Assembly (NCBI GenBank): GCA_004022145.1
Contig: RCNU01000001.1
DNA from: Paecilomyces variotii
Taxonomy: Eukaryota
Strand: one strand, 5' to 3'
DNA length: 64,000 bases
The notes beneath the pieces were generated by a model that made no database searches, was not told where the DNA came from, and saw nothing but the letters and a program-made list of their open reading frames with translations. The stretch's first letter is position 1, and each line of letters opens with the position of its first letter. Positions 23,432 to 49,792 of the stretch are shown in pieces. The translations under genes were made by a program, and so were the position numbers.

Positions 23432-24211
23432 CTGGGTTTCTTTGTGTGACCATTTTAGACGGGTTGTATAAGTGTTTTCACCTCCCAACAGGATTGGACT
23501 GTTTTGTGTAACGATAAATCGAATCAATATTCCGGTCATCTGCACAGCTCACTCTCTGTCGTAGTCTACTTGTATACTGTGCACCTAGATCCCGAGTGTC
23601 AAGCAGATCCAGATGATAGTCAGCCTAGTCTGGATGCGTGCCTGAGGCGTCAACTTGCTCGAGATCAACTCTCCGCCCAACACTTGCTTTCGGGCACTTC
23701 GCTTCTCTTGGGGATTATCTTTGGGTTCCCTTGCAGACTCCGGTCCCTGAACACTACATGAGTTAGCGAAGATACTGGTTCGATACTACTCTCTCGTCCC
23801 CGCCCTCCCACGTCACTGCGATTTCGCTTTCTGCTGCGGGACGCGGAGACTTCTCACCGCAACCAAGCGACACTTGAGGCACACAGACGGTTTACTTAGG
23901 CCCGCGGGCACGAACCAAACACTCAGCGAGCGCCCAAGTTATCCCCTTCCATCCTACAACCAGTGAAACGTACTCTTGCGGCGACCAAACCTGATCTAGA
24001 TGCTGCATCGTGTCGAACAGATCTGCTCCTGGACAAGACGAGCAGCAGGCTTCCAACGGCGTCAGGCACGGGCTGAGCGATATTCTCCCTGCAGCTGCTA
24101 GGCGCCGTGCCCCTTTCACAGTCACCCTACGAAGCGCCGCGCTACAACTAGACGAAACGCCGATTCGGAGGCGAAAGAGGGACACGTGGGACCGCGGCCA
24201 CTTTGTGCGCC

Positions 24212-26785
24212 ATGCCCTCGAAATCCCGCGAGAAGGATCACGAGAGGGATCGAAGCTCGACAGTGAAGTCGAGAGATAAGGACTCGAAGAAGGACAAGGA
24301 CAAGGAGAAGATACGTCATTCGCGATCGTCCCACGGAAAGTCGAGTGAGCTCTCAACCAAGGAACAGAGCCGAGGCGGCACCGTGGGACGCTCCGCCACT
24401 TCATCCACAACAACATCTACAAGCTCACGAAGACGCCGCAGGTCCTCAATGGCAGACGTGGATAGTGCTGGCCGGGGTGGTGCAGCTTCGTTCCTGGAGT
24501 CTAGGACTAGCTTACCCTACCCATCATTCTCGAAGGCTCACAGCAAAGAGGCGGTCGGAAGCAGGGACAACGTTGATCGCGGCTTGAGCATTTTGACGCC
24601 CGATCCCACAGATGTCGACTCAACCAAAGAAAAATCCGGCTCTTCTGGGAAGGGGGCGTCAAATGGGACAACTTCTCGGAGCGATAATCATAATGCGCCC
24701 CCGAGTCCGCCGCTTACGAGCGTGGACCAACGGTCGCAGCGCAAAGACAGTACTGCCGGGAACAGATCGTCGGACGAGAAGGCTGGCGAAAAGGTGAAGA
24801 CGGAGAAGACTAAGGTCAAGATCAAGTCTCAGTCATCTTCAAGCCTCAGTGCGAGGAAGGATGATAAGTCAAAGAGCTCCAAGCCCCACGGTGAAGTCGA
24901 CTCGCCGCACCGAGCGGCTAGCCACAGGGCATCGAGCACGAGAATGCACGATGAGGTGAAGCTGCCCAGGAGATCTGCTACGACGTCTTCTCCGCGTTCC
25001 TCTCCCAGGCCTGCAGAGGCAGCTTCACAGGCCACAAATGAATCAGATGCGACCTCTGTAGCGCCGAATCAGCCACCAGCGTATCAGAGACCTGCAACAT
25101 CCCACACAAGACCTCCATCGCGGAGCCAGGCGCGATCGTCCATGTCACATAGATCAGACCTTCGCAAGCAGACACCTATCGAGGTATTCGTGGAGCCTAA
25201 CATTTCGCCCACTTCTGCAAGATATGGTGCTCCCCCGCCCCCGCCTCCGCCGCCAGAAATGCCTATATCTATTCCGAGAGTCGACTACCTTCTCCAAAAT
25301 GGTGGACTCAACTACAAAGTGCCGAAAAATCTTTTAGCTGCTGGAGAGCCTCTCGGTATGACGCAGCAGTCGTTCCAACCTCAGGTGGCCGTGGGGAAAG
25401 TCTTCGAGCCCTACAACCGGCTGTTGGACGATTACACCCACATTATGACAAAAAATGGCTCCATTGCCGTAGCAACTGGCTACAGATCAGTGGCTCGAAG
25501 ACTGCTGGACCGGTTGGAGGCTGTTTTCGCGCGGGACATATCTTCGGAGTCATGCGAATGCTTGATGTGCGAGAATAGAGCCCCTGATGAGCATATATCA
25601 GGTGTTAGCTGGGGTGAGGTCCTGGAGCTGGTCTCTGGACGAAGGGAACTTCCGAATTGGCCCCCTTTTACAATCGCACCTTCGTTAGGTGACCGCGACG
25701 TTTCAGGCGAGGAACACATTCCGATGCAGAAGCTAGATATCGATGTCCCTGAAGAATATCGGGACCATTACATCCGACAGTCGCGAAAGACAAAGCTAGC
25801 TGTCGACAAATGGCTGACAGAACAGTCGGCTAGTGCTCCTGACGAGGTAGACGATGAGACACTGACTTTCGCGATAATGACCCACCTAGACCCGGAGAAA
25901 CGAGCTCTCTTTCGTGCTCTCCTCGGTCACTCGACCTCAATACCTACGTCCCCGGCGCAACCAAGAGCACGACCTGCGGTGTTGATGTCGTCCGGGCTAG
26001 CTATTCAACGGTTGTACAGATTGTCGTCCGTCCCCAGGGACCCGGAAACTGCCATATACATGTTAGAGAATATAAATATGCATAACGTTCTGGCGACCCT
26101 TGCGGCAATTAGTGACGACGAATGGGACATTCTCATTTCAGGCCGCTTTGATGGATTTCTACGCAGCGGAGCGGAGGATGCATTTATTCCGTCAATGTCA
26201 GGATCTGTACCTCCAAGGCCGCTAAGTCAGTCAACAAATCGGTCGACTACACCGTTCAACGGTTCCTCACGTGGGTCCTATATGGACGGCAGTTACCGTC
26301 CTGCAAGTCAGCCTTATGGCACAAATGGTGTTCCCGCTTCGTTTGGGGCTCCGATAGCTATGGATGAAGAGACAGAGATTGCGGCTCTTGCTGAAGTTGA
26401 GCGGGACATTTATCTCAGCATGGAGGCGCTTGAAGATGCTTTTGAGGTACTACATTGCAAGGCCGAGGCTGTTCGTCGTGCACTGCGCGAACGAGGTGCT
26501 GGTCTTGCAGTGGCAAGCCAAGCTCGTCGTGGTTCTTATGTTGAGGCGAGACTGGGTACACCAGCATCCGCCCTTCATTCCTGGGAAGATGGCCCTGAAG
26601 ATGACGGCATTGACGACGACATGTCCCTTGCTCCGGATGATTCCGCTAGCAACATCAGCTCTAACCGAAGACGACGTCCCAAGCGACGGACTGAGCGCCG
26701 CACTCCGGCTCCAGTCGAGGAAGAAGACGAAGAAGAGGATGCTCACATCAGCAGGCGTGATACGAGGAGTTCGAGAAAGCGCTGA
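24212..26785 (+). CDS. Hypothetical protein, about 857 aa, with Ser/Arg/Lys-rich disordered N-terminus and structured core
   Basis: Long intronless ORF with coding-like composition. Structured segments ATGYRSVARRLLDRLEAVFARDIS, CECLMC, WGEVLELVSGR, DEWDILISGRFDGFL, and a coiled-coil-like stretch LAEVERDIYLSMEALEDAFE. Confidence 0.8.
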   Translation: MPSKSREKDHERDRSSTVKSRDKDSKKDKDKEKIRHSRSSHGKSSELSTKEQSRGGTVGRSATSSTTTSTSSRRRRRSSMADVDSAGRGGAASFLESRTSLPYPSFSKAHSKEAVGSRDNVDRGLSILTPDPTDVDSTKEKSGSSGKGASNGTTSRSDNHNAPPSPPLTSVDQRSQRKDSTAGNRSSDEKAGEKVKTEKTKVKIKSQSSSSLSARKDDKSKSSKPHGEVDSPHRAASHRASSTRMHDEVKLPRRSATTSSPRSSPRPAEAASQATNESDATSVAPNQPPAYQRPATSHTRPPSRSQARSSMSHRSDLRKQTPIEVFVEPNISPTSARYGAPPPPPPPPEMPISIPRVDYLLQNGGLNYKVPKNLLAAGEPLGMTQQSFQPQVAVGKVFEPYNRLLDDYTHIMTKNGSIAVATGYRSVARRLLDRLEAVFARDISSESCECLMCENRAPDEHISGVSWGEVLELVSGRRELPNWPPFTIAPSLGDRDVSGEEHIPMQKLDIDVPEEYRDHYIRQSRKTKLAVDKWLTEQSASAPDEVDDETLTFAIMTHLDPEKRALFRALLGHSTSIPTSPAQPRARPAVLMSSGLAIQRLYRLSSVPRDPETAIYMLENINMHNVLATLAAISDDEWDILISGRFDGFLRSGAEDAFIPSMSGSVPPRPLSQSTNRSTTPFNGSSRGSYMDGSYRPASQPYGTNGVPASFGAPIAMDEETEIAALAEVERDIYLSMEALEDAFEVLHCKAEAVRRALRERGAGLAVASQARRGSYVEARLGTPASALHSWEDGPEDDGIDDDMSLAPDDSASNISSNRRRRPKRRTERRTPAPVEEEDEEEDAHISRRDTRSSRKR

Positions 26786-27703
26786 AGAGCGCATATGCAT
26801 CACATGCCTGTATAGCAATGACCGACATGTACGAAGATTTCATTCCGCCCTGAGTTCAGGCATTTAATGAAACGTGACGAAATATTACGAATTGATATGA
26901 GATGACATGATATCATTCCCCCATCCATGACTTACGCGGATTTAACATGATCACCACGCCTTTCTTTTAACATGTTTTTGGGAGGTCAAGAAATTTCAAG
27001 ATTATTGGCTTCGCATACCCATTTCCATCAGTTTGTGTTCCTTCCAGTTCAAATTTCAAACGAATGTCAATCTAATGACACTTACACGGTGGGGCATCAA
27101 AGCTTCTGACATCCTTTCTTATACGTATGGCCGCCGCAATCATTCCACCGGGCGAATTGCCAAGTCATATCGAGTTGCTTTATGAATGGCCTGTCCCCGC
27201 GCACGATATCTGACATATTCTAAATGCAAGTGTTGATATTGTCGCAGGTAATAGGTTAATGTCAGCCTGGTGCATATGTACATACATACAAACGTCCGGT
27301 GGCAGTAGATAGTTCGAAACCAACGACCTAGTTGTTTAATTCAATGAGCTACGTCCAATACTCTATTTCTCTTCCGCGTTAAGCGATTCATGAACATTCA
27401 AATCCAGATCCTTCATGAAATTAGGACATAATAATGGAGTCAGCCTTCCGCTAGATCTAGCGTCAAACAAACAATTGGCTATTTGCCTGAAAGTTCGGTA
27501 TACTGTTTGCTTCCCTTCGCCTTGAGAAGTAATGAGCATTTTTCCTATTGCGACTTCCACAAGTCGCAATGGGAGACTAGTTCATCTGGTCCGCGGAAGT
27601 CCCGCGCCCTCCATGTAAATCCACCTAATAGGAATACATCTCCCACCAAGGACCTTGATTGCTCCGAGCTCTGCATTTCTAAGAGGATACTTGTCTCAGT
27701 TCC

Positions 27704-29860
27704 TTAGAAATCACATTCCATCCGTGCTTGGATCCTCTCTGCAACTTCTAAGATAAATCCTTCTCGGAAAGCAGGTCCTACAATTGATATACCAAATGGT
27801 AGACCATCAATGAAGCCCGCTGGTATAGCAACAGCCGCCAGATCCAGAACGTTGACAGCACTTGCAAAAATGCCTAGTTTCAAATTGAGCTCAAAAGGAT
27901 CCTCTTGCACTTCCTTGATTGTTGGATGATTCGGTGCAGTAGGTAGAATGAGAATATCACATTTCTCGAATTCACCTTCCACAAGTCTTGATAACCGTTG
28001 TGCTTCGTAGAGGTCGGTGAATGCCTTGGATGCGGATATGGAAGAGCCTGACTCGAGGACTTTGGCTGTTACAGGAAGAAGTGATGGTTTCTTCTCTGCA
28101 TGTTTTAAAAACTCATCCAAAGCGGCGGTTCGCTCTGCAATAAAGGCACCTTTGTACACGAGGTCTGAGGCGGCAAGATAAGAATCCCAGTCGAATGTGA
28201 CTTCTTCAGCATGAGGCAGACTTCGAAGTAGTGAATAGGTCTTTTCAAATTGTTTGATATATGGAGAAGAGAGAACATCGTTCAGTAGGTCACGAGGAGG
28301 AACTGAGAAAGTATAGGTGCCTTCTTTGTGCAAGAGAGATCTGTTAGTCAAGGCAGCCAATGGTGGTGAGCTTCGTGCGTATGGGTCTTTGGGATCAAAT
28401 CCCTTAGACACGAGCCACACGTTTCTTGCGTCAGTGAGCGTTTTTGCGAAGAAAGAGACACAGTCAAGTGTGCGACAGGCTGGAACAAGCCCTCTCGTCG
28501 AAACAGTGCCCTTAGTTGGCTTGAGTCCCACAACATTGTTGAAGGCCGCGGGAATTCGACCAGATCCTGCTGTGTCGGTTCCCAGCGCAAAGGAGACTTG
28601 TCCTAGAGAGACAGCCACGGCGGAGCCAGAACTTGATCCTCCGGAGATACGAGTATGATCGAAAACACAATGGCAGACTCCATATGGAGATCTCGTGCCC
28701 ACAAGCCCTGTTGCAAACTGATCCATATTTGTCTTCCCAATAAGAAGTGCGCCAGCGGACTCCAGTCTCTTCACAACGTCAGCGGACATATCCGGGACGT
28801 ATTCAAATGATGGACACGCTGCAGTCGTAGATATTCCGGCAACATCGATGTTGTCCTTGACTGCAAACGGTATACCAAATAGAGGCAAATGGAGGTTTCT
28901 CTCTTCCTCTAGTTGCTGAGCTCGCTGCAACAGCTCTTCACGTGGCGCTAAGCTGATCCATATAGATGGGTGTTCCGGGTTGTCTGATTCGATTCTCCTA
29001 AGAGCTTCTTGCACAACGGTTACTGGCGAAAGACCAGCAGCATAGGCCTTCTTCAGCACCTCCATATCCATCGAACCCGTCCATTCGGGGACTTGGCTTC
29101 TATTCCTAGCTGAGAGCGGCGATAACGCCAGGAGCAGTGGCTTTGAGGAGCTCACAAATCCAAAGAGACCTTCCGAGAAGTGAATCATATCTAAGGACGC
29201 CGACCTGAAGGTCGGCACGAACCCATCCGTGCAATCGCTGAGGATGCAAGCCTCGAATCCTCGATCATTGGCCTCCCTAACTGTGGTGGTCACACAGCAC
29301 TCCACAGTCACGCCGGCAACGATGAGGTGAGTAATGCCTCGGTCAACTAGATGCTGGTGCAAGGTGGTCGAAAAGAAGCCGCCTTTTCCTGGCTTATCGA
29401 CGACATATTCCCCGGCCACTGGTTGAAGTTCGTCTACAATATCGTGGCCGTATTCTCCTCTTGTGAGAAGCCTTCCCATCGGACCTAAATCCCCAATCAC
29501 CATGGAATGCCGAGTTCTCGGGGCTCGTGCCTGCCTCAAGAGTTTGGGGGTTGGTAAGTCGCGCAAATCTGGCCGGTGGCCTTCTCGTGTATGGATGACA
29601 TGCATTCCACACTCACGAAATGCGCTCAAGACCGACAGGGTCGGGCTGATAGTAGCTTGTACCTTGTCAACCCCCGTATCTCCGGCTTGAATGTACCCAA
29701 AGCCATCCTTGAGCAAGAAGTCCCGCTGCATGTCAATGATGAGTAGGGCTGTCTTTGCGGGATCAAACTGGAACGCATATGGCTGAGCCTCGATAGAGAG
29801 TCTACCATCGCCGTTCTCGATCATGGCTCTCATCTTATCCAGGTGAGTTGCGGCAACCAT
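27704..29860 (-). CDS. Fusion protein: isochorismatase-family cysteine hydrolase (BiuH/TrtA-like) plus allophanate-hydrolase (AtzF-like) amidase domain
   Basis: N-domain: IIDMQRDF, HTREGHRPDL, GPMGRLLTRGE, DKPGKG, GVTVECCVTTTVREANDRG (Asp-Lys-Cys triad). C-domain: FAVKDNIDVAG, GKTNMDQFATGLVGTRSPYG, GGSSSGSA, LGTDTAGSGRIPA (Ser-cisSer-Lys triad). Single uninterrupted ORF. Confidence 0.9.
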   Translation of the reverse strand: MVAATHLDKMRAMIENGDGRLSIEAQPYAFQFDPAKTALLIIDMQRDFLLKDGFGYIQAGDTGVDKVQATISPTLSVLSAFRECGMHVIHTREGHRPDLRDLPTPKLLRQARAPRTRHSMVIGDLGPMGRLLTRGEYGHDIVDELQPVAGEYVVDKPGKGGFFSTTLHQHLVDRGITHLIVAGVTVECCVTTTVREANDRGFEACILSDCTDGFVPTFRSASLDMIHFSEGLFGFVSSSKPLLLALSPLSARNRSQVPEWTGSMDMEVLKKAYAAGLSPVTVVQEALRRIESDNPEHPSIWISLAPREELLQRAQQLEEERNLHLPLFGIPFAVKDNIDVAGISTTAACPSFEYVPDMSADVVKRLESAGALLIGKTNMDQFATGLVGTRSPYGVCHCVFDHTRISGGSSSGSAVAVSLGQVSFALGTDTAGSGRIPAAFNNVVGLKPTKGTVSTRGLVPACRTLDCVSFFAKTLTDARNVWLVSKGFDPKDPYARSSPPLAALTNRSLLHKEGTYTFSVPPRDLLNDVLSSPYIKQFEKTYSLLRSLPHAEEVTFDWDSYLAASDLVYKGAFIAERTAALDEFLKHAEKKPSLLPVTAKVLESGSSISASKAFTDLYEAQRLSRLVEGEFEKCDILILPTAPNHPTIKEVQEDPFELNLKLGIFASAVNVLDLAAVAIPAGFIDGLPFGISIVGPAFREGFILEVAERIQARMECDF

Positions 29861-30036
29861 TCCGTTCGAAAAATGAGAAGATATGCTCCACAAGAGAAAG
29901 GCCCGAGAGTTGAAGAACAGGACTTGGAACGTAAAAGAGACATACTCTACTCTCGAGAAATAGTATCTGTCTCCCTCGCAGCCGCTTAATGCTCCGGCCC
30001 GTCGGGCTGGCCGCGGGAAGAAGACGGCAAGCCCAG

Positions 30037-30094
30037 CTTATCATGAAGTAATATTAAAGCTTTATCTTCCAGCGGTCTTCCCAGCGGTCTTATC
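30037..30094 (-). promoter_or_regulatory. Three GATA boxes interleaved with a CCAGCGGTCTT direct repeat upstream of the fusion gene
   Basis: CTTATC at 30037, TTTATC at 30061, CTTATC at 30089. CCAGCGGTCTT at 30069-30079 and 30081-30091. About 180-235 bp upstream of the ATG at 29860. Confidence 0.55.
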
Positions 30095-30951
30095 AGCCTA
30101 CACCGGTCCTGGGGGAATTTGGAAACTAGGTATAGTCTGCGATGGGAACAGTAACCTAGTGCGGAAGGTGAGGGGTTTCGCCTGCTAGCTCCCCAGGGCC
30201 GATAATAAATACACAATGAGGGGGTAAGCGGGGCATGAATCAATTATTATTAGAAACCTAGTGCAATGTGGTCAATGTATTTTATATTTCATTTTAGAGT
30301 GGTATCACTTAAATAGTACAACATGTACATACATTAAGGACGGACGGACAGTGATTACCTGAAGCAAGCAAATCTAGAATACGTTCTACATATTAGGTAG
30401 TGCGGTAGGGATAGGGTCTGTTAAGTAGTAAGTAAGTACGGGGTTACGACGGGGAAGGCGTCAATGTATTATCTTCGCGGTACTCCGATTAATTCCAAGT
30501 TAAAGTATTTGCCTCCTCTTCTCAAGTTTTCAAAGTCCTTTTGCAGAAAGGATCAATTGATAAGCTGGTCACCAGCTAGCTATAAGCAGGAAATATGCCG
30601 TACCTACCTAAGTCATGAGATTGGGGGCTGAAACGTCGATATCCCACTTGATGATCTGGCCTACATCGCCCATCTCAAGCATTTGATAATAGGCCATGGC
30701 CGTATGTATTCTTTCTTATTAAAAACAAGGGAGATGCACCCTGTTACATGTCATGTGATGCGGATGACTCACCTTGCGCAATCAATCGGTTCCTGAAGTA
30801 TTCAAGAGTACAACAGTAAGACTTCAAGGAGGATTCCTGGTTTATTTTGCCATCGAACATTCGGGTAATAAGAGTATCCCTATTCTTTTTTTTTTTTCCT
30901 TTTTTTACCACACAACCAACCATTTAGGGATCACAACTTAATGTTTGCGCA

Positions 30952-31757
30952 ATGACACTACCCGCCATCTCCATCGTTGGAGAAGAACACGCAAATCAGG
31001 CAGCCGAAGTGATTGCGGCAGCCTTCTCTAACTCCCCCTTCACAGGATATTTGCTGCGCAACGCGGATTCCACATGGCTGTCCAATCAGATCCCTTCTGA
31101 GATCATCCTTCCTCATTTTCAAGAGAGCACACCTAAGAAACTCAAGTATGGCGCCGAGCTGGTAGAAGCAGGAAACTGGGCTGCCGTCGCTGTATGGTGA
31201 GTCTAGTAATTTTGTGATGCAATTACTTGGTCTATAAGACCTGCATGTTCTATGTGCTATTGACGTCCTATCTTTTTTTCCTTTTGAGTGGGTGGGTTAG
31301 TTATTGACTAAGATTGCAAGGTTCCCACCTGGACGTTCCATTCCCATAGAGGATAATCCGGACCCCCGAGTGAAAGAGTACCGCGACACGTTCGCACAAA
31401 TCAAGAAACAGCATCTACGTGGTCGGGAGTATTGGTATCTCAATCTGATAGGCAGACATCCAAATCGAACGGATGCCGGTGCGTACTATGAATCTCCCAT
31501 GAATGTGTGATAATGAACTGAACTGAAAATAAATAGGCGCTGTTCGAGCTTTAATCGACCCATACTTGAAAAAGGCCCGAGAGCAGGGCGCGGCAGTATG
31601 GCTGGAAGCCATTACTGAGCATGGAAAGCAGGTCTATGAGCATTTATCTTTTCGGACAGTAGCAGAAGTGCGCATAGGGGTTGGAAAGACCAATTCGAAG
31701 GGCGAGTTTGACGAGAATGGGGAAGGTATTTTGGTATATGGGATGATGGCTGAATAG
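30952..31757 (+). CDS. GNAT-family N-acetyltransferase
   Basis: Three exons splice in frame: AAVAVW/FPPG, YWYLNLIGRHP..G/AVRALIDPYLKKAREQGAAVWLEA..HGKQVYEHLSF (GNAT motifs A and B). Confidence 0.85.
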
Positions 31758-34700
31758 AATGAACGGGTGTCTAGGACTAGAAATGCCCATAGAGCGAGAA
31801 GCCGAAATTATGTCCTGTGGAATGAAGTATATATTTCGAAGGAAAGAGAAGACCCCCTCATACTATCATACGTCCATACATTTCCCTCCATTACAACATC
31901 CCCCTCTGGGAGCCAGCTCGAGGTAGTACACACATGGCTTATTTGGCGGCTCAGCTTACCTTCAAATGTAAATGCTCAACCTGAGCTATTTCCTCGACAA
32001 GATGGTCGAATCACCACACATGGAGGCCTTGGATGTAGTGATTGGCCACTGAGGCACTCATCTCACCCCTGTATCTATATATTCACAATAGAGGAGACCT
32101 TTGCTGCTTATTCTGTTCTATGCATTTAACCATAAAATGCATGAGACCACAGAGATTGCAGCTGGTCAACCTCGTTCAAGCAATCAATCATCGACGTCGA
32201 CAGGTAAAAGGAAGCTGTAAATAGTTGCCTCATAGTAGGCGAAAACATAGATTCTTTTCTCTGGCTCATACACTATTCAATAACCCTAGAGGACACCTTC
32301 TACGCACACAAAGTATCAGAGAAAGAAGAGCCATGTATTATGAGTCTTGTTCGATTACTAAAATAAAATTTATGGCCATGTGGTAAAGGGCGCAGACCTG
32401 ATTCGTTCCTCCTTGATATCAGGAGAGTTCCAGGATTCACCCAAAAACTGGTGTCAAATATGTCTTTTCATTCTCTTCCTGACACTAGTGGGCTCATCTA
32501 TCACGCCCACTGTTAGTTACTGTTGCCACCGCCATGTACAAGGTAAGCTTAATACTAAAAGATCACCATCTGTTGGAAATAAGCACCCTTGAAACATATA
32601 GAATGAGAGACGGTTCGAAGATCCGGAAGAAGAAAGCAGTCGGCGTGCCCTCTCATCTGTGTATGAAGATCATAGTTTCCAGAATTCTCTAGCGATGCTC
32701 CACAAAGACGCTAACTAAATGATATCAATGAACGGCAAACCGGAATGATGGTTATATACCTTACTCGGTACTACTCTGTAATAAATCAACGGTAATGAAC
32801 CGGACAACTGATAAGGCTGTGCCGCAATGCCTAATTATACTAAACAGACCATTAGTTGGCCGCAGCAGGCCTACAAGACGGCGTCTCCGCCCACGCCTCT
32901 AGTTTAATGGGCTATTTTTGGGATGGTCCAGTCTTCATCTCTCATAGATAGCAGAAATAAAGTCGCCGGCCTAGTGGATCTTGAAATATATTAGTCGCCG
33001 TCCAGATTGTACCGACTCCCGAGGCAAGAAGTCGGGAGCTCCTCCATTGAGTACATACTACATACAGCAGTGCTATCTCTACTAGAGAGTTGGTAGGGGG
33101 TCCCACATCCACCCGATTCCGCGGTGACCGGTCGAGTCTCAGAAGATGTCGTTAGGGCGAAAAGGAATTTGACTGTCTTCAGCATTGCGCAATTACAACT
33201 GTGCCGCAATTGGAGTGGGGTTTGGTTTTGGGTTCCCTGTAAACTGGACGGGCATTCTCGACTTAACTAGCTATTCACGGTGCATGGTGAGAAATTGATA
33301 TCGAAATTTTCTATTGCCTCAAGCAAAAAGTATTGGTGTCATTCGAGCGTCAGTTGAAATAAGCTATTGTGCCAATTTTGCTATTACACATGCACGGCAT
33401 TTGCCGCTAGTAAGTACATATGACATGTCCAGTGCACACTGGTCGCGATGTCATGGTGAATGAGCCCAGGTGATGATTGGTAGGTAGATATATGGCAATA
33501 AAAGGAATTTCGAGGTTCCCAGGATAACAAATCAAACTCGAGTTGTATACCTGGTTCCTCCCTGGGGCAAATATTGACACAGGTGCAATTCTGAGAATTT
33601 GTAATCACTAACTACGCGAACAAACTGACTAGTTAAAAAAAAAAGCGATTGAGCAGCATTGACAATCGTCGCTGCGCCGGATGAAAGGCAGTATTATCCC
33701 TGTTCGCATATTGAAGCTGAGCTTTGACTGGCGAACTGTGCACAGCACGCTGCGGCAGGATCCCTAACGATAGACATCAGGGGTTTGATCTGGGAACGCC
33801 ACGCGAATAACTCCTCTGGATGATTTACATTTAACAGTCATCGGGCGGGTACTATCTGTGGTTTCTTTGTAGTATTCCGTTAAATGCCGTGAGATGACAT
33901 CGAGCTTGCTTGGTCCAACGATGTGATGCGTGAATCTTCAAAAGTGGAGGGGTTCTCAATATATCATATACACTATGCAACACATGTCCAAAGCGTCCGG
34001 CGAAGAATAGCCTAGAAAGAAGTACTAAAGTCCCCTGACGAGAAAAGAGAAAGGCCTGATCACTCTCTATCAGCAATTTGCACCCATGCGTGGAAGATCT
34101 ACTACGCCACAAGAGCTTCATTGGGTTGATCGCCAATTAAGCGATCGAATAATTGACGCGCATGCGCTGTCAAGCAGCGGTGTCGAGGCCGTCAGACTTG
34201 TCATATGCAAAAACAAACCATGTGGAAAAAACACACCTTAGTTACTTAGTAGTTATCTGCGGCCCGGGACGAGGGAACGGACGGCGAAGCGCTCCGGACC
34301 TATCTATACGATGCGAATTCCATAAACTTGTGTCAGTGTATATGGCATGGTATCTGCCTATCATCCCGCTTGTCGTCTGTTATAGATCATGTTTTGAACC
34401 CAGCTTTTGTGGATAGCTCATCTTGTTCAAGGATGAATGCATGCAGTCCTTCCTGTTTCTTGACGGCAAGCCGAGTGGCAAGCATGGGCATAAAAGTCTC
34501 TATATTGTCACTATCTAAACGCCTATCCCCGAGAGCACAGCATAACTTCTTATATTATTATTAAATAAGGAGTACGCCGTACGCCGATCGTTACCCCAAC
34601 ATTTCGCCCGGAACAGTTTACCCGTCACTAATAATCGCCGGCGGGACTGAAAATCGATGAATGAAAAGGCCATCGGAAATTCGCCTGGCCTGTGCTGTCG

Positions 34701-37473
34701 AATCGTTCCTCTCCACACGCGAAAAAGATTATTTGACTAGATAGACTAGTCTGGCCACGTTCTCCCGGATACCCCCGATGTCTAACGTGGCGTGTAATCC
34801 ACACCATTCTTGTGGTCGATTTCAGAGCCTGGATGAACTTTGCTGTGACTTGCGTTCCCTGTTAGACCTCCCTCAAGCATAAAATATGTCATTTCTTGTT
34901 TCACGCTGGCCCTAACTGAAATAGTTCAAAGCTGCGTCAAAGGATCGACTTATTCCAAATGGTTATCGGACGGAAGGAGAAAGGGGGAAGTGTAGCAGAG
35001 ATCTCCAGGTTCTGTGCAGTAAATGCACCATCATGATGGGGAACTATTACCCCATATTAATCAGAGCCATTATTTCTCTTCGATTAGCGGCGCGGCGCAG
35101 CAGGCCCAGGTGGCAGTCGACCGACTAGGAAAACACTGATCTTCAATCCGCTGCAGAGGATAAGCTGTTTGGGCTCGGCCGAGAGCTATTCGTACCTCGT
35201 CCCGAGGCTGCTCTATGCGGCTCTGAGTACATTGTTGCTATTATTGCCCCTGATTATCCCGGGCATCGATTCACAGCTCGTTCGTTTTCGCTTCAAAGAG
35301 TTAACTGTGTCTCTGGGTTCTTATGTAGGGATATGAGGGGTTATTGATGCCGGTTGGCTGTTCCCCCTGGAGCCTTCAGGATAACAATGAAATGATCCCA
35401 GTAATAGCTGCCAATGGCAACATATTGTAGAGCTAGTCAGTTACTGCAAATGCAAGAAGTTTTCACTAACCATGCATGCCGGGGGAAAGTCCACTTGAGA
35501 AGACAAGCAACGACAAGACAAGCCAAGATGAACATAAGCACAACAGAGGCAGCATTGGCAGTGGAGGTACAATATGACTGACACGAAAAAAATAAACTCT
35601 TTCAAGTAGGAAAAGAAAGGGAGCAAAAAGTTATGGCCAAACTGGGGTTCGATCCCAGGGCATTATTTGTGTTAGCGATACGTGATAACGGATGCCAGGG
35701 CATGGATGGGAGAAATAAAAATATTGTAGACAGAGGAGAGCAAGTATCTAGCTGAATTCGACAGAGCCTCTTCGGAATCATCCTGCCGAAACTCCCACAA
35801 CTAGATACTCCGTACATTTTTACTGCGACAGAGGATCATGATTATTCATGTCAGTCAGCTATCTACGCTACCTGGTCAAGCATGCGCCAGAAGACTGCCA
35901 AGAGAATTTAGCAGCGTGATATGACTCCCATGCCGACCAGGGAACTTGACTCTAACCATGCGGCCTCGCTCGACGAAAAACTCTTTACTCATCGGCAGTG
36001 GGTTCGCGGTAACGGATGACAAAACTTGATGCTGAATTTGCGCCGCTCTATTACTGATTTACCACTCAGCGCCGTCAAGACTGAGCTCGACGGGCCCGCC
36101 ATGTGGAGAGCTCGTATTCTCCAACTTCATTTTTGCCCCTGACAGGGCATCAGACCGTGGTCCCCCCGCGAGCTGGTCACTCCGCATCCGTGTACCTGTT
36201 TACGAACCTGAAGCTTATTTTCTTCCAGTCTATCGATCATCCAAGTCGATGGTTTCGCATTATCGCGTCGACCACGCCGCCTACAATCAATCGAGGTGGG
36301 AATCCGTCTCCCTGCAAAAGGGAGAGGGGCGTCCAGGAGCTTCTGGCGCCTTCATGACAACGATAACGCCTTCTGTAAGTAGAGAGAATCTTCGGGTGGC
36401 ACCCGAGGCAGTGCGACGACGGCAGTTAAACAGCGCCAGTTTCGGATAGGGAACCGGGCACAATCTTGCAGTACCATAGGGTCAGCACGGCATATTATTA
36501 TTCTAGTGTGCGGAGCAACAATAATACACAGAATCCCCTAAAGATGTGTGGGTCGGATCTTGGGGTCCCCGCGCTCCCCCAGACCAAGTCGACCGGCCGT
36601 CCATTGCTAGATGTACCATGGACACATCGTGTCAGCCAGATCTCGATGGCAAGAGATCAGTGCTGGTCACCAGGTGGCAGAAACATACCAACATCGGACG
36701 TTTATTCTGTCCATCTGATGGGAAAATAAGCTATGTTCATCTCTATCTGCATGTCAGTTTGATGTCCTATACTGCAACGGTTCACCGGTGGCGTAAGCCA
36801 AACCCAAGACGATGACACTTGATCCCGGCACGAGGGCCGGTGCGTTCGCTGTCTCTCAAACGCCCAATCCAGGCTGATGACCATCTTCTCCAAATCCATT
36901 GTCCAACGAAAACTGTCTCTAACAATGCCGTCCGCCAACGGTGGGTCAGGGGGACAAAACCTGGTACCTGGAGCTATGGCGTGGCAACCTCTCTCGCTTA
37001 CGTCTGGGCGTTCGCGGATTGATGCCTCGTATTGGCGATTAACTGTGCCAGCGAAAGCTTCGACGGACTTTTCCACGTCTTCTATAGTGCAGCCCTAGTC
37101 GACAAGTGGAAGCCCTATGATCCACGCCTCTAGGGGATGCCGGCCCGAAAGACGCAGCCAGATGAGGACTGGCGGTAACTCTCTGACGAGACATCAAACG
37201 TTATGGTGATAGGAAACTGATTCTGCTCGGAGGATCGTCTCGGGGGATCTGTGTCTCCCCTTTCCCTTTTACGACTCGGGCCAGTTTCTGCAGCGATCGC
37301 TGAGTCTCGATGTCTGTGGTCCCCGCCCTGAGCAGGTGTTTTAAGGGCCGATCTCAGGTACTATATCTGGGAAGGCTCTCGGCGTCTGGTCCATCTTGCG
37401 GTCTCTGAAATTTCCTGGAAAGGGAAACAATGCGCCTTGACGGAAGCTATCCACTATTGCGAACGAACTCGCA

Positions 37474-47071: not shown

Positions 47072-49792
47072 TCAGGCTTGAGCGGCATCTTCAGAGACTT
47101 CATGCGGTCGGCCAAGTCCAACGCCTGCTCTCCTGCCTTGGACGATTGCTAACAGACATTGGCCTGCACCCTCCAAGTCACCTAGCAGTCCCACATGTCC
47201 GCGTTCACTTTTGACGAGCCCATCTCGGATGATCCGGTACCCTTCGGGCAACATGGCGGCGGAAGCAAGACACACACCGTCGCCAGCAGCGTAAGCAAGG
47301 TCGTCGTAGGCATCCTGGTGCTTTATGTGCTCGCGCGAAGTGACTCTCGCCCCGTATACTGTGGGTACTGATTTGCCGAATAGCACTGCAAACGGGGGAT
47401 ACCGATTGTTTTCCTGGTGGGAAGGATTGAATGCGAGTTCCTGTTTGAATTGACGGACCTCGGACAGTGTTCGCCGCAGGTATGCGACGGCCTCGTGCTT
47501 CGGGATTGTAGTTCCCATCCCAGCAGTTGTAGTTGTGCGCGGGTTCGTGGTCGGACCGATTGCTCCTTGCATTGCAGGTGCTGCTGTAGTGATCTGTTGT
47601 TCGCTCCCAGAATGACGCGGTTTGGACATTTGCTTCAACTCTTCGCCATTTCGTGGCACATGTCGTCCCTGCTCTTGTTCGCGGCCCGTCTTAGGAGCTG
47701 ATGGATCCTCGTTCGTCCCATCTTTCCCGCCAAGTACTGTAGAGAATCGCTTTCCGACCTTTGGCAAGGACGGAAGCGAGCTGGGGATATCCATAAGGCC
47801 CTTCCTCGAATCGCCGCCCATTGGCGGCAGAGGCGCTGTTATGCATGGGGACAGTCTATACTCGTCCCATGTATCGACATTGAAAAAGTCAACCAAATAT
47901 TCTTCCTTTGTTTTCTTGTTTATAAAACAACGGCCATCCTCCGGCAGCAGTGCATAACTCGTGCGGAAGGTAAAGTTCACCTGTGCCGTAAGGACACGGG
48001 AACTTAGAAGGACTTCATCTCCATTTCGCAAGGGCCCTAGAATATTGACGCAGTGCTGAGGGACACCGGCATAGACGACGCCGGCGAACAAGTCCGGTCG
48101 TTGATTGACAGCATGCCTCGTGATCAGGCCACCGAGACTGTGTGCAACGACGAAAGCGCCTCTTTTCTCCGGCGGTGTATCAGGGCTGTTCGATGGTAGC
48201 TTCTCCAAAAACTCGATCAACCTGCGTGACAAGAGATGCGGACTCAGCCGCCAGTCATATCCATAGTCCCACACCCGAAGTTTTCCGTCTCTCGCATTCT
48301 CGCATTTTCGTAGTTTGTTCATCAACCTCCGACAAATGTCAACGGGGCCAATATGTGAAAGGGTGCCGGATGCTATGATCTTCTCTTCCATCTTCCCCTC
48401 ATCTTCTGGCGTCAGGCCAACTTCAAGGTCGACTTTACGGATATTCAGACCAACTTTCATGGGTACCCAGAGTTGGCGGTGCGGTGGCTTAGCGGAGCGA
48501 AGGACAGATCCTCTGTATCCGCCTAAAACGACCACATCGCCGGTCAGCACTGACGTTGCTTGTGTCAAGGCAGGATACAAAACTTCCTTCTTCGTCTTAG
48601 CCGACCGAGTCTTGGATTGTGAGTCAAACTTCGCTCGTCCGCCGTCAACTGCATGCTCTGTGTGTCCCAGTCGACGCTGATGCACGTCACTGACAAAACG
48701 GCCGTAACCCCAGTCGCTCTTCATATCATGAAAATTCAACCCCGGCATGCTCAATAGTCTACTACTCGAGTCTTGAAGACTGTCCTTAATCGCCTTGAAG
48801 CGAACATTTACCTGCGAATGCACATTCTCATAGCGCGAGCGGTCTTCCAAGGAAGATGTCCGTGACAGATTCCTCAGATATATGGATTGGTCAGACGCTG
48901 ACCTGCGTAAAGCGAGCGGTGGTCCAACTGTAGCAAGGCCGGGTCTCTGTTGGTAGGAATGTCTCGCCATGGTTGATTTATTCAGAGGCTTAAGTTCGGA
49001 AATTGGCTCCTCACCCGCGGTGTTGGTATAGTCTGCACTAGTATATGGCCGCCGCTGATCAACTTGGGGCGCATCTTCAAGGGCTTGCTTTTGCTTCACT
49101 GGTTCCGACCTGGCACTCACGACTTTTGTTGACAGACTTCGGGAGCGGTTATGACCTGGTCCGGAGATCAAGGAAGATAGAGAAGATCGCTTGGTTAGAG
49201 AGTTGAAGTCGGGAAGAAACTTCTTCAGCTTGATATTGGCCACTCCTTCTCCAGTCCATGCACGCGGGCGAGTAGGTAGACCACTCAGGATAGTTCTTGT
49301 AAACCGAGAACGTGGACCCTCCTTCCCATCTTTGGGAACTGTCGTCGGGAACTCGGTTTGTCGAACCTCTTCTGCTTCTCGCTCATCTTCCTCGTCCGTA
49401 GCCTGTTTTGCATCGAGAGAGTCCGGTTCGGTGGTTATCGAGTGTAGATATTCTGGCCCACCTTCTTCGTCTGGAATCGTGCCAAAGTAGCTGCCGCCTT
49501 GATTCATCGCCCTGGCTTTCTCCTCCGCTGGTGTACTTCTTGCCTTCATCCGCGACTGCGCATGGCTGATACTGACTCCTATGACGTCGTCCGCCTCGTC
49601 TTCGTCCGCAGAATCCACCATCTTGAGAGGATCGTCTTCGTTTTCAGAACTAGTAGTTTGCTCCGACGTGTCGACACCTGTTCGTGAGGAGTCATTGACC
49701 TCACTATCAGAGGCAGACACATCCAACATTTCCGACTCTATTGCGCCTGGCAGCTGCAGCACGCCACCAGCGCGTGTGTTTGTCGCGGCCAT
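47072..49792 (-). CDS. Alpha/beta-hydrolase-fold protein (LCAT-like; yeast YJR098C-like) with long acidic N-terminus
   Basis: VVLGGYRGSVLR, WDYGYDWRLSP, nucleophile elbow VAHSLGG, AAGDGV, GHVGLLGD (Ser-Asp-His). Confidence 0.78.
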   Translation of the reverse strand: MAATNTRAGGVLQLPGAIESEMLDVSASDSEVNDSSRTGVDTSEQTTSSENEDDPLKMVDSADEDEADDVIGVSISHAQSRMKARSTPAEEKARAMNQGGSYFGTIPDEEGGPEYLHSITTEPDSLDAKQATDEEDEREAEEVRQTEFPTTVPKDGKEGPRSRFTRTILSGLPTRPRAWTGEGVANIKLKKFLPDFNSLTKRSSLSSLISGPGHNRSRSLSTKVVSARSEPVKQKQALEDAPQVDQRRPYTSADYTNTAGEEPISELKPLNKSTMARHSYQQRPGLATVGPPLALRRSASDQSIYLRNLSRTSSLEDRSRYENVHSQVNVRFKAIKDSLQDSSSRLLSMPGLNFHDMKSDWGYGRFVSDVHQRRLGHTEHAVDGGRAKFDSQSKTRSAKTKKEVLYPALTQATSVLTGDVVVLGGYRGSVLRSAKPPHRQLWVPMKVGLNIRKVDLEVGLTPEDEGKMEEKIIASGTLSHIGPVDICRRLMNKLRKCENARDGKLRVWDYGYDWRLSPHLLSRRLIEFLEKLPSNSPDTPPEKRGAFVVAHSLGGLITRHAVNQRPDLFAGVVYAGVPQHCVNILGPLRNGDEVLLSSRVLTAQVNFTFRTSYALLPEDGRCFINKKTKEEYLVDFFNVDTWDEYRLSPCITAPLPPMGGDSRKGLMDIPSSLPSLPKVGKRFSTVLGGKDGTNEDPSAPKTGREQEQGRHVPRNGEELKQMSKPRHSGSEQQITTAAPAMQGAIGPTTNPRTTTTAGMGTTIPKHEAVAYLRRTLSEVRQFKQELAFNPSHQENNRYPPFAVLFGKSVPTVYGARVTSREHIKHQDAYDDLAYAAGDGVCLASAAMLPEGYRIIRDGLVKSERGHVGLLGDLEGAGQCLLAIVQGRRAGVGLGRPHEVSEDAAQA

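Follow-up and report, generated by a model that had tools for sequence, protein, structure and literature searches.

The locus described here raises the question of whether a single fungal gene could encode two steps of ureide breakdown in one polypeptide. It lies in a window of 64,000 nucleotides from Paecilomyces variotii (contig RCNU01000001.1), by which we mean the whole stretch of DNA that was analysed. A sequence-only reading had claimed an intronless open reading frame (ORF) that joins a biuret/triuret-hydrolase-type domain, with an intact Asp-Lys-Cys triad, to allophanate hydrolase (AH), and that lacks the biotin carboxylase domain of urea carboxylase. The features discussed below are collected in Table 1.

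Table 1. Positions in the window of the fusion gene, its domains and key residues, and the upstream region.
Feature	Position	Strand	Basis
Whole intronless ORF, 718 codons + stop	27704..29860	-	ORF listing, translation
Cysteine hydrolase (isochorismatase-like), residues 37-227	29180..29752	-	Pfam PF00857, E 1.3e-35
Asp43, predicted catalytic Asp (= TrtA D24, BiuH D36)	29732..29734	-	Alignment; 41/41 fused orthologues
Gly60, at TrtA Asn41 position (Tyr in BiuH)	29681..29683	-	Alignment, signature table
Lys156, predicted catalytic Lys (= TrtA K129)	29393..29395	-	Alignment to TrtA, orthologue conservation
Glu187-Cys188-Cys189 motif	29294..29302	-	Alignment, signature table, orthologue conservation
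Ser229-Glu230, at TrtA Gln202-Gly203 (BiuH Gln215)	29171..29176	-	Alignment
Poorly conserved interdomain linker, roughly residues 246-262	29075..29125	-	Alignment of fused orthologues
AH amidase (N) domain, residues 263-714	27719..29074	-	NCBIfam NF006043; PDB 4GYR
Lys335, amidase-signature triad Lys	28856..28858	-	78/78 bacterial AHs, 41/41 fused
Ser409, first Ser of GGSSSGS	28634..28636	-	78/78 bacterial AHs, 41/41 fused
Ser433, predicted nucleophile in GTDTAGSGR (= K. lactis AH Ser177)	28562..28564	-	Alignment to 4ISS
Tyr569 to Arg577	28130..28156	-	Alignment to 4GYR, constant offset 29
Upstream region, 7 HGATAR (GATA-factor type) sites	29861..30860	-	Motif count

The gene model stands as it had been described. 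The first ATG of the minus-strand frame is at 29860 and the stop codon at 27704-27706, within a stop-to-stop frame of 27704-30037. Translation confirmed the codons of Asp43, Lys156, Cys189, Lys335, Ser409 and Ser433, and both motifs that had been quoted, DQFATGLVGTRSPYG and GTDTAGSGR, are present in the product. Pfam identifies exactly two families in the 718-residue protein, Isochorismatase and Amidase, as expected for the claimed fusion, and it gives no match there to biotin carboxylase, carboxyltransferase or BCCP, in agreement with the claim that the urea carboxylase part is absent. The linker lies between the end of the BiuH profile match at residue 245 and the start of the AH profile match at residue 263. 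A P. variotii protein of equal length is 97% identical to the product.

Contigs from RNA libraries (three metatranscriptome runs of one study) are colinear with the ORF, with no joints or gaps, and a single contig spans 27517-29862. They agree with an unspliced gene, with DNA carry-over in the libraries being possible; this RNA evidence consists of contigs alone, which give neither level nor strand, and stretches that they leave uncovered are uninterpretable. Below 27517, one RNA-library contig continues into unlike sequence. In the upstream region, control by nitrogen through the GATA-type sites is too weakly supported, because at least seven HGATAR sites are also found in 7.8% of the 1-kb windows of the 64-kb stretch. 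Contigs from the RNA libraries X2 and X4 stop at 30025, within this region, a weak hint that comes from one study. Pfam scans of ORFs across the window (22 + 33 + 13) revealed no nitrogen-catabolic cluster near the fusion gene.

The triad claimed for the N-terminal domain is borne out by alignment to TrtA. Asp43, Lys156 and Cys189, the last in the nucleophile position of TrtA C162, are invariant in 41/41 fused orthologues; Lys159, three codons past Lys156, corresponds to TrtA K132, and V184-T185, ahead of the nucleophile, aligns to the cis-peptide V157-T158. The best PDB matches of the domain are TrtA (6XIX, E 9e-61) and the biuret hydrolases 6AZO (BiuH, E 3e-56) and 6XJM, and the best NCBIfam model is that for BiuH, at 234.1 bits. 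RutB matches with a PDB E of 1e-24 and an NCBIfam score of 96.5 bits. Nicotinamidase reaches 33 bits, and the check for clustering with nicotinamidases, which had been proposed with the original claim, thus came out against them. The domain is, on these alignments, a member of the BiuH/TrtA subfamily, to which it is closer than to RutB or nicotinamidase.

Within the subfamily, the designation as a biuret/triuret-hydrolase-type domain holds in so far as TrtA and BiuH are its best relatives, but not as an identification with BiuH. The curated cut-off of the BiuH equivalog model (NCBIfam NF050097) is 370 bits, well above the score of the fungal domain; in a calibration with bacterial proteins, those with a BiuH signature scored 374-424 bits (4/4) and those with a TrtA signature 241-292 bits (7/7). 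Mean identity of the domain is 55.7% to TrtA-type sequences (n=81) vs 45.8% to BiuH-type sequences (n=10). The earlier account had carried over from bacteria the step in which BiuH makes allophanate. Because the BiuH cut-off is failed and the glutamine that binds the distal amide is missing, allophanate production by the fungal domain is something that we infer, rather than something to be read from its sequence.

In both BiuH and TrtA, the distal amide is bound by this Gln. In BiuH, the mutations Q215A and Q215E raise the KM more than 25-fold (PMC5806882). In TrtA, the specificity residue Q202 is partnered by N41; less than 10% of triuret activity remains in the mutants N41Y and Q202E, and Q202E has tenfold increased biuret activity (PMC7948467). 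In the fungal protein, another residue stands in for the substrate-discriminating Gln, and the next position holds a residue that is acidic or an amide; an ungapped local alignment pairs LDMIHFSEGLFGF with LEMLTAQGGIVGW in the region of TrtA Gln202-Gly203. Among the fused orthologues, S, Y, Q, A or F is found at TrtA position 202, and E, D, Q or N at position 203.

The domain departs from both known consensus patterns. From that of TrtA (F35, N41, A134, E160, Y187, Q202, I205), it keeps or conservatively replaces four residues (F35 to F54, E160 to E187, Y187 to F214, I205 to L232) and has lost three (N41 to G60, Q202 to S229, and A134 to G161, a Ser in most orthologues). From that of BiuH (Tyr, Tyr, Ser, Asp and Thr at TrtA positions 35, 41, 134, 160 and 187, plus Gln215), it differs in having F54, G60, G161, E187 and F214 at the discriminating positions, and S229 for the Gln. 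The Glu-Cys-Cys motif is invariant in the fused proteins; its Glu187 is TrtA-like, there being an Asp in BiuH, and Cys188, which takes the place of a Val (TrtA V161), marks fusion-type sequences in the sample examined. The residues that would contact the ureide end of the substrate (D43, E93, K159, the V184-T185 peptide and E187) are all kept. Since the distal Gln is gone, and its mutants impair both BiuH and TrtA, neither known specificity can be assumed for the domain.

The fusion-type signature was found in 94 of 185 domains examined, the remaining 91 being bacterial. Gln202 is kept in all 91 of the latter; the TrtA-type domains among them (n=81) all keep N41, and all but three keep Gly203 as well. 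We regard the fungal domain, by comparison of these residues, as carrying a third, fusion-type signature within the BiuH/TrtA subfamily. Its best solved relative is TrtA (6XIX, 6XJE), with which it has in common the triad, E72, K132, the Val-Thr peptide, F29, F35, E160 and an aromatic residue at 187. It differs from TrtA in having Gly for N41, Ser for Q202, Glu for G203, Cys for V161 and Gly or Ser for A134, and in being fused to an amidase. BiuH (6AZO; NF050097) is alike in fold and triad, and its product, allophanate, is the substrate of the AH family to which the fused partner belongs; however, Q215 has no equivalent in the fungal domain, the profile score is below the cut-off (234 vs 370 bits), and of the five discriminating residues only the Ser is found, in most orthologues.

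The C-terminal half was correctly recognized as allophanate hydrolase. It passes the AH subfamily model NF006043 (541.7 bits vs a cut-off of 487), with residues 263-714 matching profile positions 6-448 of 600, and Pfam assigns residues 282-702 to Amidase (E 1.9e-86). The equivalog TIGR02713 is narrowly missed (497.4 vs 511.05 bits), since of its 563 profile positions no more than 2-413 are open to a match. The best PDB matches are G. bethesdensis AH (4GYR, E 1.8e-118) and AtzF (4CP8, E 4e-112), with which the triad and a Tyr/Arg pair are common, and 77 of the 81 columns that are conserved in at least 95% of 78 bacterial AH amidase domains are identical. The differences from these two enzymes are the added N-terminal hydrolase and an altered T-N-x-x-x-L motif, in which the fungal fused proteins keep N667 in 1/41 and L671 in 0/41 cases. 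An AtzE-type (carboxybiuret) amidase was considered and rejected, the scores of 196-199 bits being far under the cut-offs.

We take Ser409 to be the triad's cis-Ser, in keeping with the general pattern of amidase-signature enzymes. Tyr569 and Arg577 align to Tyr299 and Arg307 of G. bethesdensis AH, the residues that bind the carboxylate of allophanate; the Tyr is kept in 78/78 bacterial AHs and 41/41 fused proteins, and the Arg in 78/78 and 40/41. Ser433, which is kept in 78/78 and 41/41, was placed by an alignment to 4ISS calibrated with the numbering of 5I8I, and the role of its equivalent, Ser177 of K. lactis AH, is that given in PMC5770610.

The fused partner is nevertheless not a complete allophanate hydrolase, a point overlooked in the sequence-only reading: the amidase domain is there, but the AH C-terminal domain (Pfam PF21986, AH_C) is absent from the fusion protein, and likewise from all 43 fused matches among the best 120. 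A profile built from 69 bacterial AH C-domains, run against all six translated frames of the window, gave no match up to an E of 10, and hence no hidden exon. The same absence characterizes 9 of 78 bacterial AH genes, which have no C-domain after the amidase domain, and a 50-kDa amidase fragment of AtzF is reported to stay active (PMC3944691). By analogy with these cases, the AH amidase domain should be able to work without the C-domain.

The fusion is not peculiar to P. variotii. The same two-domain protein makes up 43 of the best 120 database matches, and the E-values and this recurrence place it beyond chance. It is present in Eurotiomycetes, Dothideomycetes, Sordariomycetes, Leotiomycetes, Pezizomycetes, Lipomycetes and one basidiomycete, and is thus widespread across Dikarya, neither rare nor lineage-specific. 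The fused orthologues of Aspergillus californicus and Dipodascopsis uninucleata have lost the amidase triad and kept the hydrolase triad, which suggests that the first domain is useful without the second in some lineages. The literature searched contains no description or characterization (activity, growth) of the fusion, although papers or supplements outside that literature may refer to it or to homologues in fungi.

In the trees of both domains the fused proteins group together, with support values of 99 (22 of 60 rows) and 100 (18 of 56 rows), and neither tree singles out a specific bacterial donor. A rooted quick tree of the hydrolase domain separates fusion-type and TrtA-type sequences from BiuH-type sequences and outgroups with a support of 100; the branches leading to the outgroups are very long, and the competing topology is not rejected, at a p-AU of 0.132. 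The outgroup consisted of three distant hydrolases, and no true RutB was found in five bacterial genomes. Fungal Dur1,2 was considered as the source of the amidase domain and rejected, since in four fungal proteins of the urea amidolyase type the AH domain falls outside the fusion clade (support 99).

Bacterial gene order offers a plausible starting point. Of 16 bacterial loci that have a hydrolase near AH, six carry the hydrolase gene directly upstream of the AH gene on the same strand. The gaps between the ORFs are 3-18 nt in loci L001-L003. None of the eight loci that matched both halves has a single-ORF fusion. Such an unfused pair, adjacent in equal order, fits an operon that turned into a fusion. 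Because the upstream hydrolase is TrtA-type in four of the six loci (L001, L027, L050 and L053), the ancestral AH neighbour may have been trtA. In the green alga Chlamydomonas, a BiuH-type domain is fused to a TrtA-type domain, so that a fusion within this pathway does not have to link successive steps.

The closest known systems are the bacterial trtA-(trtB)-biuH-atzF operons, as in Herbaspirillum sp. BH-1 and Rhizobium leguminosarum bv. viciae 3841 (PMC7948467). They contain the same enzyme families and triads and likewise constitute an ATP-independent route to ammonia, with the hydrolase-AH order alike in the six loci mentioned. The operons differ in comprising separate genes rather than one ORF, and the fungal protein in lacking the AH C-domain; moreover, bacteria usually have two specialized hydrolases, TrtA and BiuH, both of which carry Gln where specificity is set, whereas the fungal protein has one domain without that Gln. 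Dur1,2 urea amidolyase (5I8I) is also a fungal fusion of AH to an enzyme that makes allophanate; however, its partner is the ATP- and biotin-dependent urea carboxylase, and the AH C-domain is retained. The AH domain of the fusion protein matches K. lactis AH at 320 bits, vs 399 for bacterial AHs. Finally, the synthetic BA2H (biuret hydrolase - P2A - allophanate hydrolase) encodes the same pair of activities in one ORF for a eukaryote, having been designed for plant transformation; it is man-made, is cleaved at P2A into two proteins, and uses bacterial BiuH and full-length AH (PMC13155557).

On balance, we think it probable that the product of the gene is a bifunctional ureide amidohydrolase that needs no ATP and takes biuret and/or triuret via allophanate to ammonia. 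The N-terminal hydrolase (Asp43-Lys156-Cys189) would strip a terminal amide nitrogen from a small acyl-urea. Among the known substrates of the BiuH/TrtA subfamily, biuret alone yields allophanate directly (PMC7948467). Biuret would be the most likely first substrate, giving ammonia and allophanate, and triuret may be accepted too. The C-terminal amidase, with Lys335, Ser409 and Ser433 as its predicted triad and Tyr569 and Arg577 holding the carboxylate, would then convert allophanate to ammonia and N-carboxycarbamate, which would break down without the missing AH C-terminal domain. Fusion would set a 1:1 ratio and hold the two sites near each other, such that allophanate may be used before it decarboxylates to urea. 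A closed channel between the active sites is not implied; for the K. lactis urea amidolyase, the one precedent that has been studied, the data in PMC5770610 favour diffusion of allophanate through solvent over channelling. As for origin, a bacterial pair in which the AH gene directly follows the hydrolase gene may have become a single frame early in fungal evolution.

A further proposal, which we offer tentatively and hold to be rather unlikely, is that the fusion-type domain represents a third specificity class of the BiuH/TrtA subfamily. The Asn41-Gln202 pair, which fixes substrate length in both known enzymes, would have given way to a Gly and a small or aromatic residue with an acidic or amide neighbour, and the enzyme would take triuret as well as biuret, or a natural ureide not yet described; an early fungus would have acquired a bacterial operon pair, which then merged to form a single gene.

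Other explanations of the locus have to be weighed against these. It is most improbable that the ORF is an artefact, whether from contaminating bacteria or chimeric assembly, or as a functionless relic in decay. An intronless gene with two bacterial-looking halves might suggest as much, but the same contig carries ordinary fungal genes on both sides (anoctamin, HhH-GPD, GPCR, HisG, MutS), the GC content of the gene is 0.50 vs 0.49 for the window, and the RNA-library contigs are colinear. In addition, both triads are kept in 41 full-length fungal orthologues, and the fusion gene has introns in other lineages, as where the gene model of P0122 breaks off after AVK. A second scenario, that the N-terminal domain is a strict triuret hydrolase, we consider unlikely. 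Triuret would be converted through carboxybiuret to biuret, another enzyme would carry out the biuret step, and the fusion would merely keep operon neighbours co-expressed, with no direct passing of product. F35, E160 and the aromatic residue at 187 are common to the domain and TrtA, identity to TrtA-type sequences is 55.7%, and the domain groups with TrtA-type sequences in the rooted tree (support 100), although the alternative topology is not rejected (p-AU 0.13). The TrtA-type hydrolases directly upstream of bacterial AH (4/6) and the Chlamydomonas fusion, by which consecutive steps are not required, are also consistent with the scenario. However, N41 and Q202 are both replaced, and in TrtA a single mutation at either position costs more than 90% of triuret activity; moreover, the pathway would stall without a biuret step, unless the domain takes biuret or a separate BiuH exists.

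It is also doubtful that the fusion-type clade acts on neither biuret nor triuret, its substrate being instead another acyl-urea, a guanyl-urea, a diamide or an undescribed product of purine oxidation. With a diamide, for example, malonamide could be converted to malonamate and then to malonate, the second cleavage being made by the amidase domain. Such a substrate would account for the distal pocket having been rebuilt in a fixed way in 94 of 185 domains and for the change in the otherwise conserved T-N-x-x-x-L motif of the amidase (N667 1/41, L671 0/41), and a distal group that is cationic or rich in donors would sit well beside an acidic side chain. Yet the amidase domain passes the AH cut-off and keeps 77/81 AH-conserved positions, including the Tyr/Arg pair, the contacts to the ureide end (D43, E93, K159, V184-T185 and E187) are all retained, and the neighbouring genes point to no candidate compound. 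A ureide amidohydrolase acting on biuret and/or triuret is the reading that we retain.

Finally, we note what the fusion may mean beyond this locus. Many of the fused proteins are labelled 'glutamyl-tRNA amidotransferase subunit A' or 'hypothetical' in the database matches, and these current labels are misleading. The fusion protein also amounts to a natural experiment on the discrimination between TrtA and BiuH, in which evolution has altered the residues flagged by mutagenesis. As an intronless, eukaryote-adapted ORF that may carry both steps, it could be viewed as a natural counterpart of the synthetic BH-AH construct (PMC13155557). Urea fertiliser contains both biuret and triuret as impurities; biuret is toxic to plants, and oxidised uric acid is a further source of triuret (PMC7948467). 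How the two compounds are broken down has been established for bacteria only, and a conserved one-gene version in many fungi, plant pathogens and soil moulds among them, would widen the range of organisms that mineralise them. If the fusion-type class does take both triuret and biuret, one fungal polypeptide would replace the bacterial set of TrtA, BiuH and AtzF.

The 718-codon intronless frame claimed in the sequence-only reading is borne out by translation as a single open frame, and both motifs singled out there, DQFATGLVGTRSPYG and GTDTAGSGR, are found in the translated fusion protein (P0001), in which Pfam recognizes only two families. Its closest database match is a Paecilomyces variotii protein of 718 residues (97% identity), and the flanking genes are ordinary fungal ones (gamma-glutamyltranspeptidase, anoctamin, HhH-GPD, Gpa2-type receptor, HisG and MutS); together these indicate that the window comes from a chromosome of a Paecilomyces-like mould (Eurotiales). 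Metatranscriptome contigs from three libraries of one study, representing a strain about 97% identical, are colinear with the ORF and have neither joints nor gaps, which fits an unspliced fusion gene but is not proof of transcription.

A 5501-base RNA-library contig of a related strain agrees with the window between 29862 and 27517 and, below 27517, continues into unlike sequence, so that the region 3′ of the fusion gene is strain-variable or the contig is chimeric. The region directly 5′ of the gene has a GC content of ~0.45-0.47 and a longest open frame of 123 codons, with no Pfam match in its 13 longest frames; it may be either an extended intergenic region or a decayed element.

Features of the fusion gene and its surroundings (positions in the window; residues of the fusion protein)
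Feature	Window position	Strand	Residues	Evidence or remark
Fusion gene	27704-29860	-		718 codons; ATG at 29860, stop at 27704-27706
Isochorismatase domain		-	37-227	Pfam, E = 1.3e-35
Amidase domain		-	282-702	Pfam, E = 1.9e-86
Match to NCBIfam AH model			263-714	Positions 6-448 of 600
T-N-x-x-x-L motif	27848-27865		666-671	Altered in fungal fused proteins
Span of one metatranscriptome contig	27517-29862			Colinear with the ORF
Region 5′ of fusion gene	30040-36035			~6 kb
Open frame	24152-26782	+		877 codons, no Pfam match; converges on 3′ end of fusion gene
Open frame	47075-49888	-		938 codons, no Pfam match

The N-domain does not cluster with nicotinamidases or generic isochorismatases, the outcome that the sequence-only reading had set against its own proposal. 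Its best solved relative is the triuret hydrolase TrtA (6XIX, E = 9e-61), followed by the biuret hydrolases (BiuH) of Rhodococcus (6XJM, E = 1.4e-56) and Rhizobium (6AZO, E = 2.9e-56), with RutB far more distant (E = 1e-24). The proposed biuret/triuret-hydrolase type is thus upheld by structural relatives, but the domain misses the cut-off of the curated BiuH model (234 versus 370 bits). Among the fetched bacterial loci, that model gives 374-424 bits for proteins with a BiuH signature (4/4) and 241-292 bits for those with a TrtA signature (7/7). Mean identity of the N-domain is 55.7% with TrtA-type and 45.8% with BiuH-type proteins. In the unrooted hydrolase tree, the fusion-type sequences (22 of 60 rows) form one group (quick-tree branch support 99) and the 10 BiuH-type rows another (100). 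Rooting with three distant hydrolases places fusion-type and TrtA-type sequences together (100), although these outgroups sit on very long branches and the alternative grouping is not rejected (p-AU 0.13). The triad Asp43-Lys156-Cys189 is unchanged in all 41 fused orthologues.

Seven positions separate TrtA from BiuH according to the accessible text of PMC7948467: F35, N41, A134, E160, Y187, Q202 and I205 in TrtA numbering. Tabulated over 185 domains, they define three clean classes, of which the bacterial BiuH-type is essentially the one predicted in that text.

Residue signatures of the hydrolase domains at the seven positions, in order
Class	n	Signature
Bacterial TrtA-type	81	F, N, A/S, E-V-C, Y, Q-G-G-I
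Bacterial BiuH-type	10	Y, Y, S/A, D-V-C, T/I, Q-G-G-V
Fusion-type	94	F/Y, mostly G, S/G/A/T, E-C-C, F/Y, [S/Y/Q]-[E/D/Q/N]-G-L

The fusion type has lost two residues of TrtA, Asn41 and Gln202, which contact each other in that enzyme (PMC7948467, accessible text). The distal amide is bound by Gln202 (Gln215 in BiuH), a residue contributed by the partner subunit, as stated in the portions available of PMC7948467 and PMC5806882. The latter gives a KM increase of more than 25-fold for BiuH Q215A and Q215E; the former gives less than 10% remaining triuret activity for TrtA N41Y and Q202E, together with a tenfold higher biuret activity for Q202E. A full amidase domain is present in 42 of the 94 fusion-type sequences and a partial one in 29, whose gene models are cut at introns or contig ends; the model of the homologue P0122 stops directly after AVK. 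Another 18 are cut within the hydrolase domain, and five have a complete hydrolase domain with the amidase part undetected. No clear stand-alone fusion-type hydrolase was found among the 94.

The C-domain scores 541.7 bits against the NCBIfam model for allophanate hydrolase (AH; cut-off 487), versus only 196-199 bits with the AtzE models. It matches the AH structure of G. bethesdensis (E = 1.8e-118), that of AtzF (E = 4e-112) and, more weakly, that of K. lactis (E = 1.5e-94). Across 78 bacterial AH amidase domains, 81 columns are conserved at ≥95%; the fusion protein is identical at 77 of them, including Lys335, Ser409, Ser433, Tyr569 and Arg577. Tyr569 and Arg577 align with what we take to be Tyr299 and Arg307 of the G. 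bethesdensis enzyme. Ser433 is aligned with Ser177 of K. lactis AH, the nucleophile according to the accessible text of PMC5770610.

The AH C-terminal domain (PF21986) was not found in the fusion protein with Pfam or NCBIfam, in any of the 43 fused matches among the best 120, or in a six-frame translation of the whole window. This loss is not unique to the fusion protein, because the amidase domain is also the end of the gene in nine of the 78 bacterial AH genes examined (loci L002, L003, L012, L017, L028, L049, L055, L057 and L065, several of them Methylophilaceae). For AtzF, an amidase fragment of 50 kDa is reported to be active (PMC3944691). In L057 the terminal amidase domain belongs to a 1677-residue frame. 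A T-N-x-x-x-L motif, conserved at ≥95% in the 78 bacterial AHs, is altered in the fungal fused proteins (Thr in 16/41, Asn in 1/41, Leu in 0/41); it might touch the missing C-domain or else belong to the pocket. Apart from that missing domain, every sequence test identifies the C-domain as an AH amidase domain.

As judged from these alignments, both active sites are intact and conserved. The N-domain would take the terminal amide off biuret to give allophanate, which the C-domain would then cleave. A route from biuret and/or triuret through allophanate to ammonia is, in our estimate, somewhat better than an even bet. Among the known substrates of this hydrolase subfamily, biuret alone yields allophanate, whereas the product of TrtA is carboxybiuret, and decarboxylation followed by BiuH is then required (PMC7948467, accessible text). 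The N-domain resembles TrtA most closely, and it may be a strict triuret hydrolase that is fused for co-expression only, but we think this unlikely. The rebuilt distal pocket may be an adaptation that lets a TrtA-derived domain take biuret, or both substrates, in agreement with the gain in biuret activity of TrtA Q202E (PMC7948467, accessible text). It could equally be a sign of a different substrate, and we think an N-domain acting on something other than biuret or triuret just as unlikely as the strict triuret hydrolase. That the fusion ORF is an artefact is scarcely credible: the RNA-library contigs run through it uninterrupted, and the hydrolase triad is constant among the orthologues. For the route through allophanate, we do not claim channelling, because mutant mixing with K. 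lactis urea amidolyase argues for diffusion of allophanate through solvent; the fused K. lactis enzyme is more efficient despite this (PMC5770610, accessible text).

Fused proteins with both triads intact where checked occur in Eurotiomycetes (Paecilomyces, Talaromyces, Elaphomyces, Capronia), Dothideomycetes (Macrophomina, Neofusicoccum, Elsinoe, Zymoseptoria, Cucurbitaria, Dissoconium, Eremomyces), Leotiomycetes (Rhynchosporium), Sordariomycetes (Clonostachys), Pezizomycetes (Geopyxis) and Basidiomycota (Meredithblackwellia). When 1.84 billion representatives were searched exhaustively without a profile, ten of the best 150 had the two-domain architecture; all six of those with a name are from fungi, and none of the ten has an added AH C-domain. 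The fused proteins of Aspergillus californicus (P0248; Eurotiomycetes) and Dipodascopsis uninucleata (P0253; Lipomycetes) keep the hydrolase triad, but neither the amidase triad nor the Tyr/Arg pair survives (the changes in P0248 are K335Q, S409Y, S433G, Y569D and R577H); their amidase half is predicted to be a dead yet retained domain. In the amidase tree, the fused proteins (18 of 56 rows) form one group (support 100). A recent copy of the fungal urea amidolyase Dur1,2 was rejected as the source of the fused amidase, because the AH domains of four long urea amidolyase-type proteins (Fusarium, Vanderwaltozyma, Lachnellula and the chytrid Nowakowskiella) fall outside this group (99).

We conclude that the fusion is real, conserved and probably functional. 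Neither of the two enzyme families is new, nor is the pathway, and homologues in "some fungi and phytoplankton" are mentioned in the accessible text of PMC7948467. In full-text searches of the open literature we found no description or characterization of the fused architecture, of its Dikarya-wide spread or of the fusion-type signature at the specificity site; an earlier mention in closed-access papers or supplements is possible.

The origin of the fusion may be reflected in bacterial gene pairs. Scanning a single genome for each prokaryotic species gave at least 80 AH loci, and 16 of those listed have a BiuH- or TrtA-type gene within the 6-kb flanks. Six of these 16 have the hydrolase gene immediately 5′ of the AH gene in the same orientation; it is TrtA-type in L001, L027, L050 and L053 and BiuH-type in L002 and L003. 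The ORF-to-ORF gaps in L001-L003 are 3-18 nt, and the AH of L003 has 462 residues and no C-domain. None of the eight listed bacterial loci that match both query halves holds a single-ORF fusion. Genes of both hydrolase types lie near the AH gene in L027, L037, L050, L053, L054 and L003, which is the published bacterial operon layout; in these loci the two types are told apart cleanly by the seven discriminating residues. The fusion protein aligns with nearly the whole BiuH profile (positions 3-220 of 221), its AH profile match starts at position 6, and the linker is ~17 residues. Adjacent gene pairs, short gaps, near-complete profile matches and a short linker fit a fusion in which two operon neighbours lost the stop codon that separated them, most simply once the pair had been transferred into an early fungus. 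The transfer is something we infer, since the hydrolase (60-row) and amidase (56-row) trees resolve no bacterial donor lineage and the GC content of the gene is similar to its surroundings.

Finally, we note other fusions among the homologues P0293, P0268 and P0274. Chlamydomonas reinhardtii CHLRE_10g448500 (498 residues) is a tandem fusion of BiuH-type and TrtA-type domains, and in proteins of Spirogloea muscicola a TrtA-type domain is joined to a copy that lacks the Asp and the Cys and is apparently inactive. The enzymes of this pathway have thus become fused in eukaryotes in at least two different ways.
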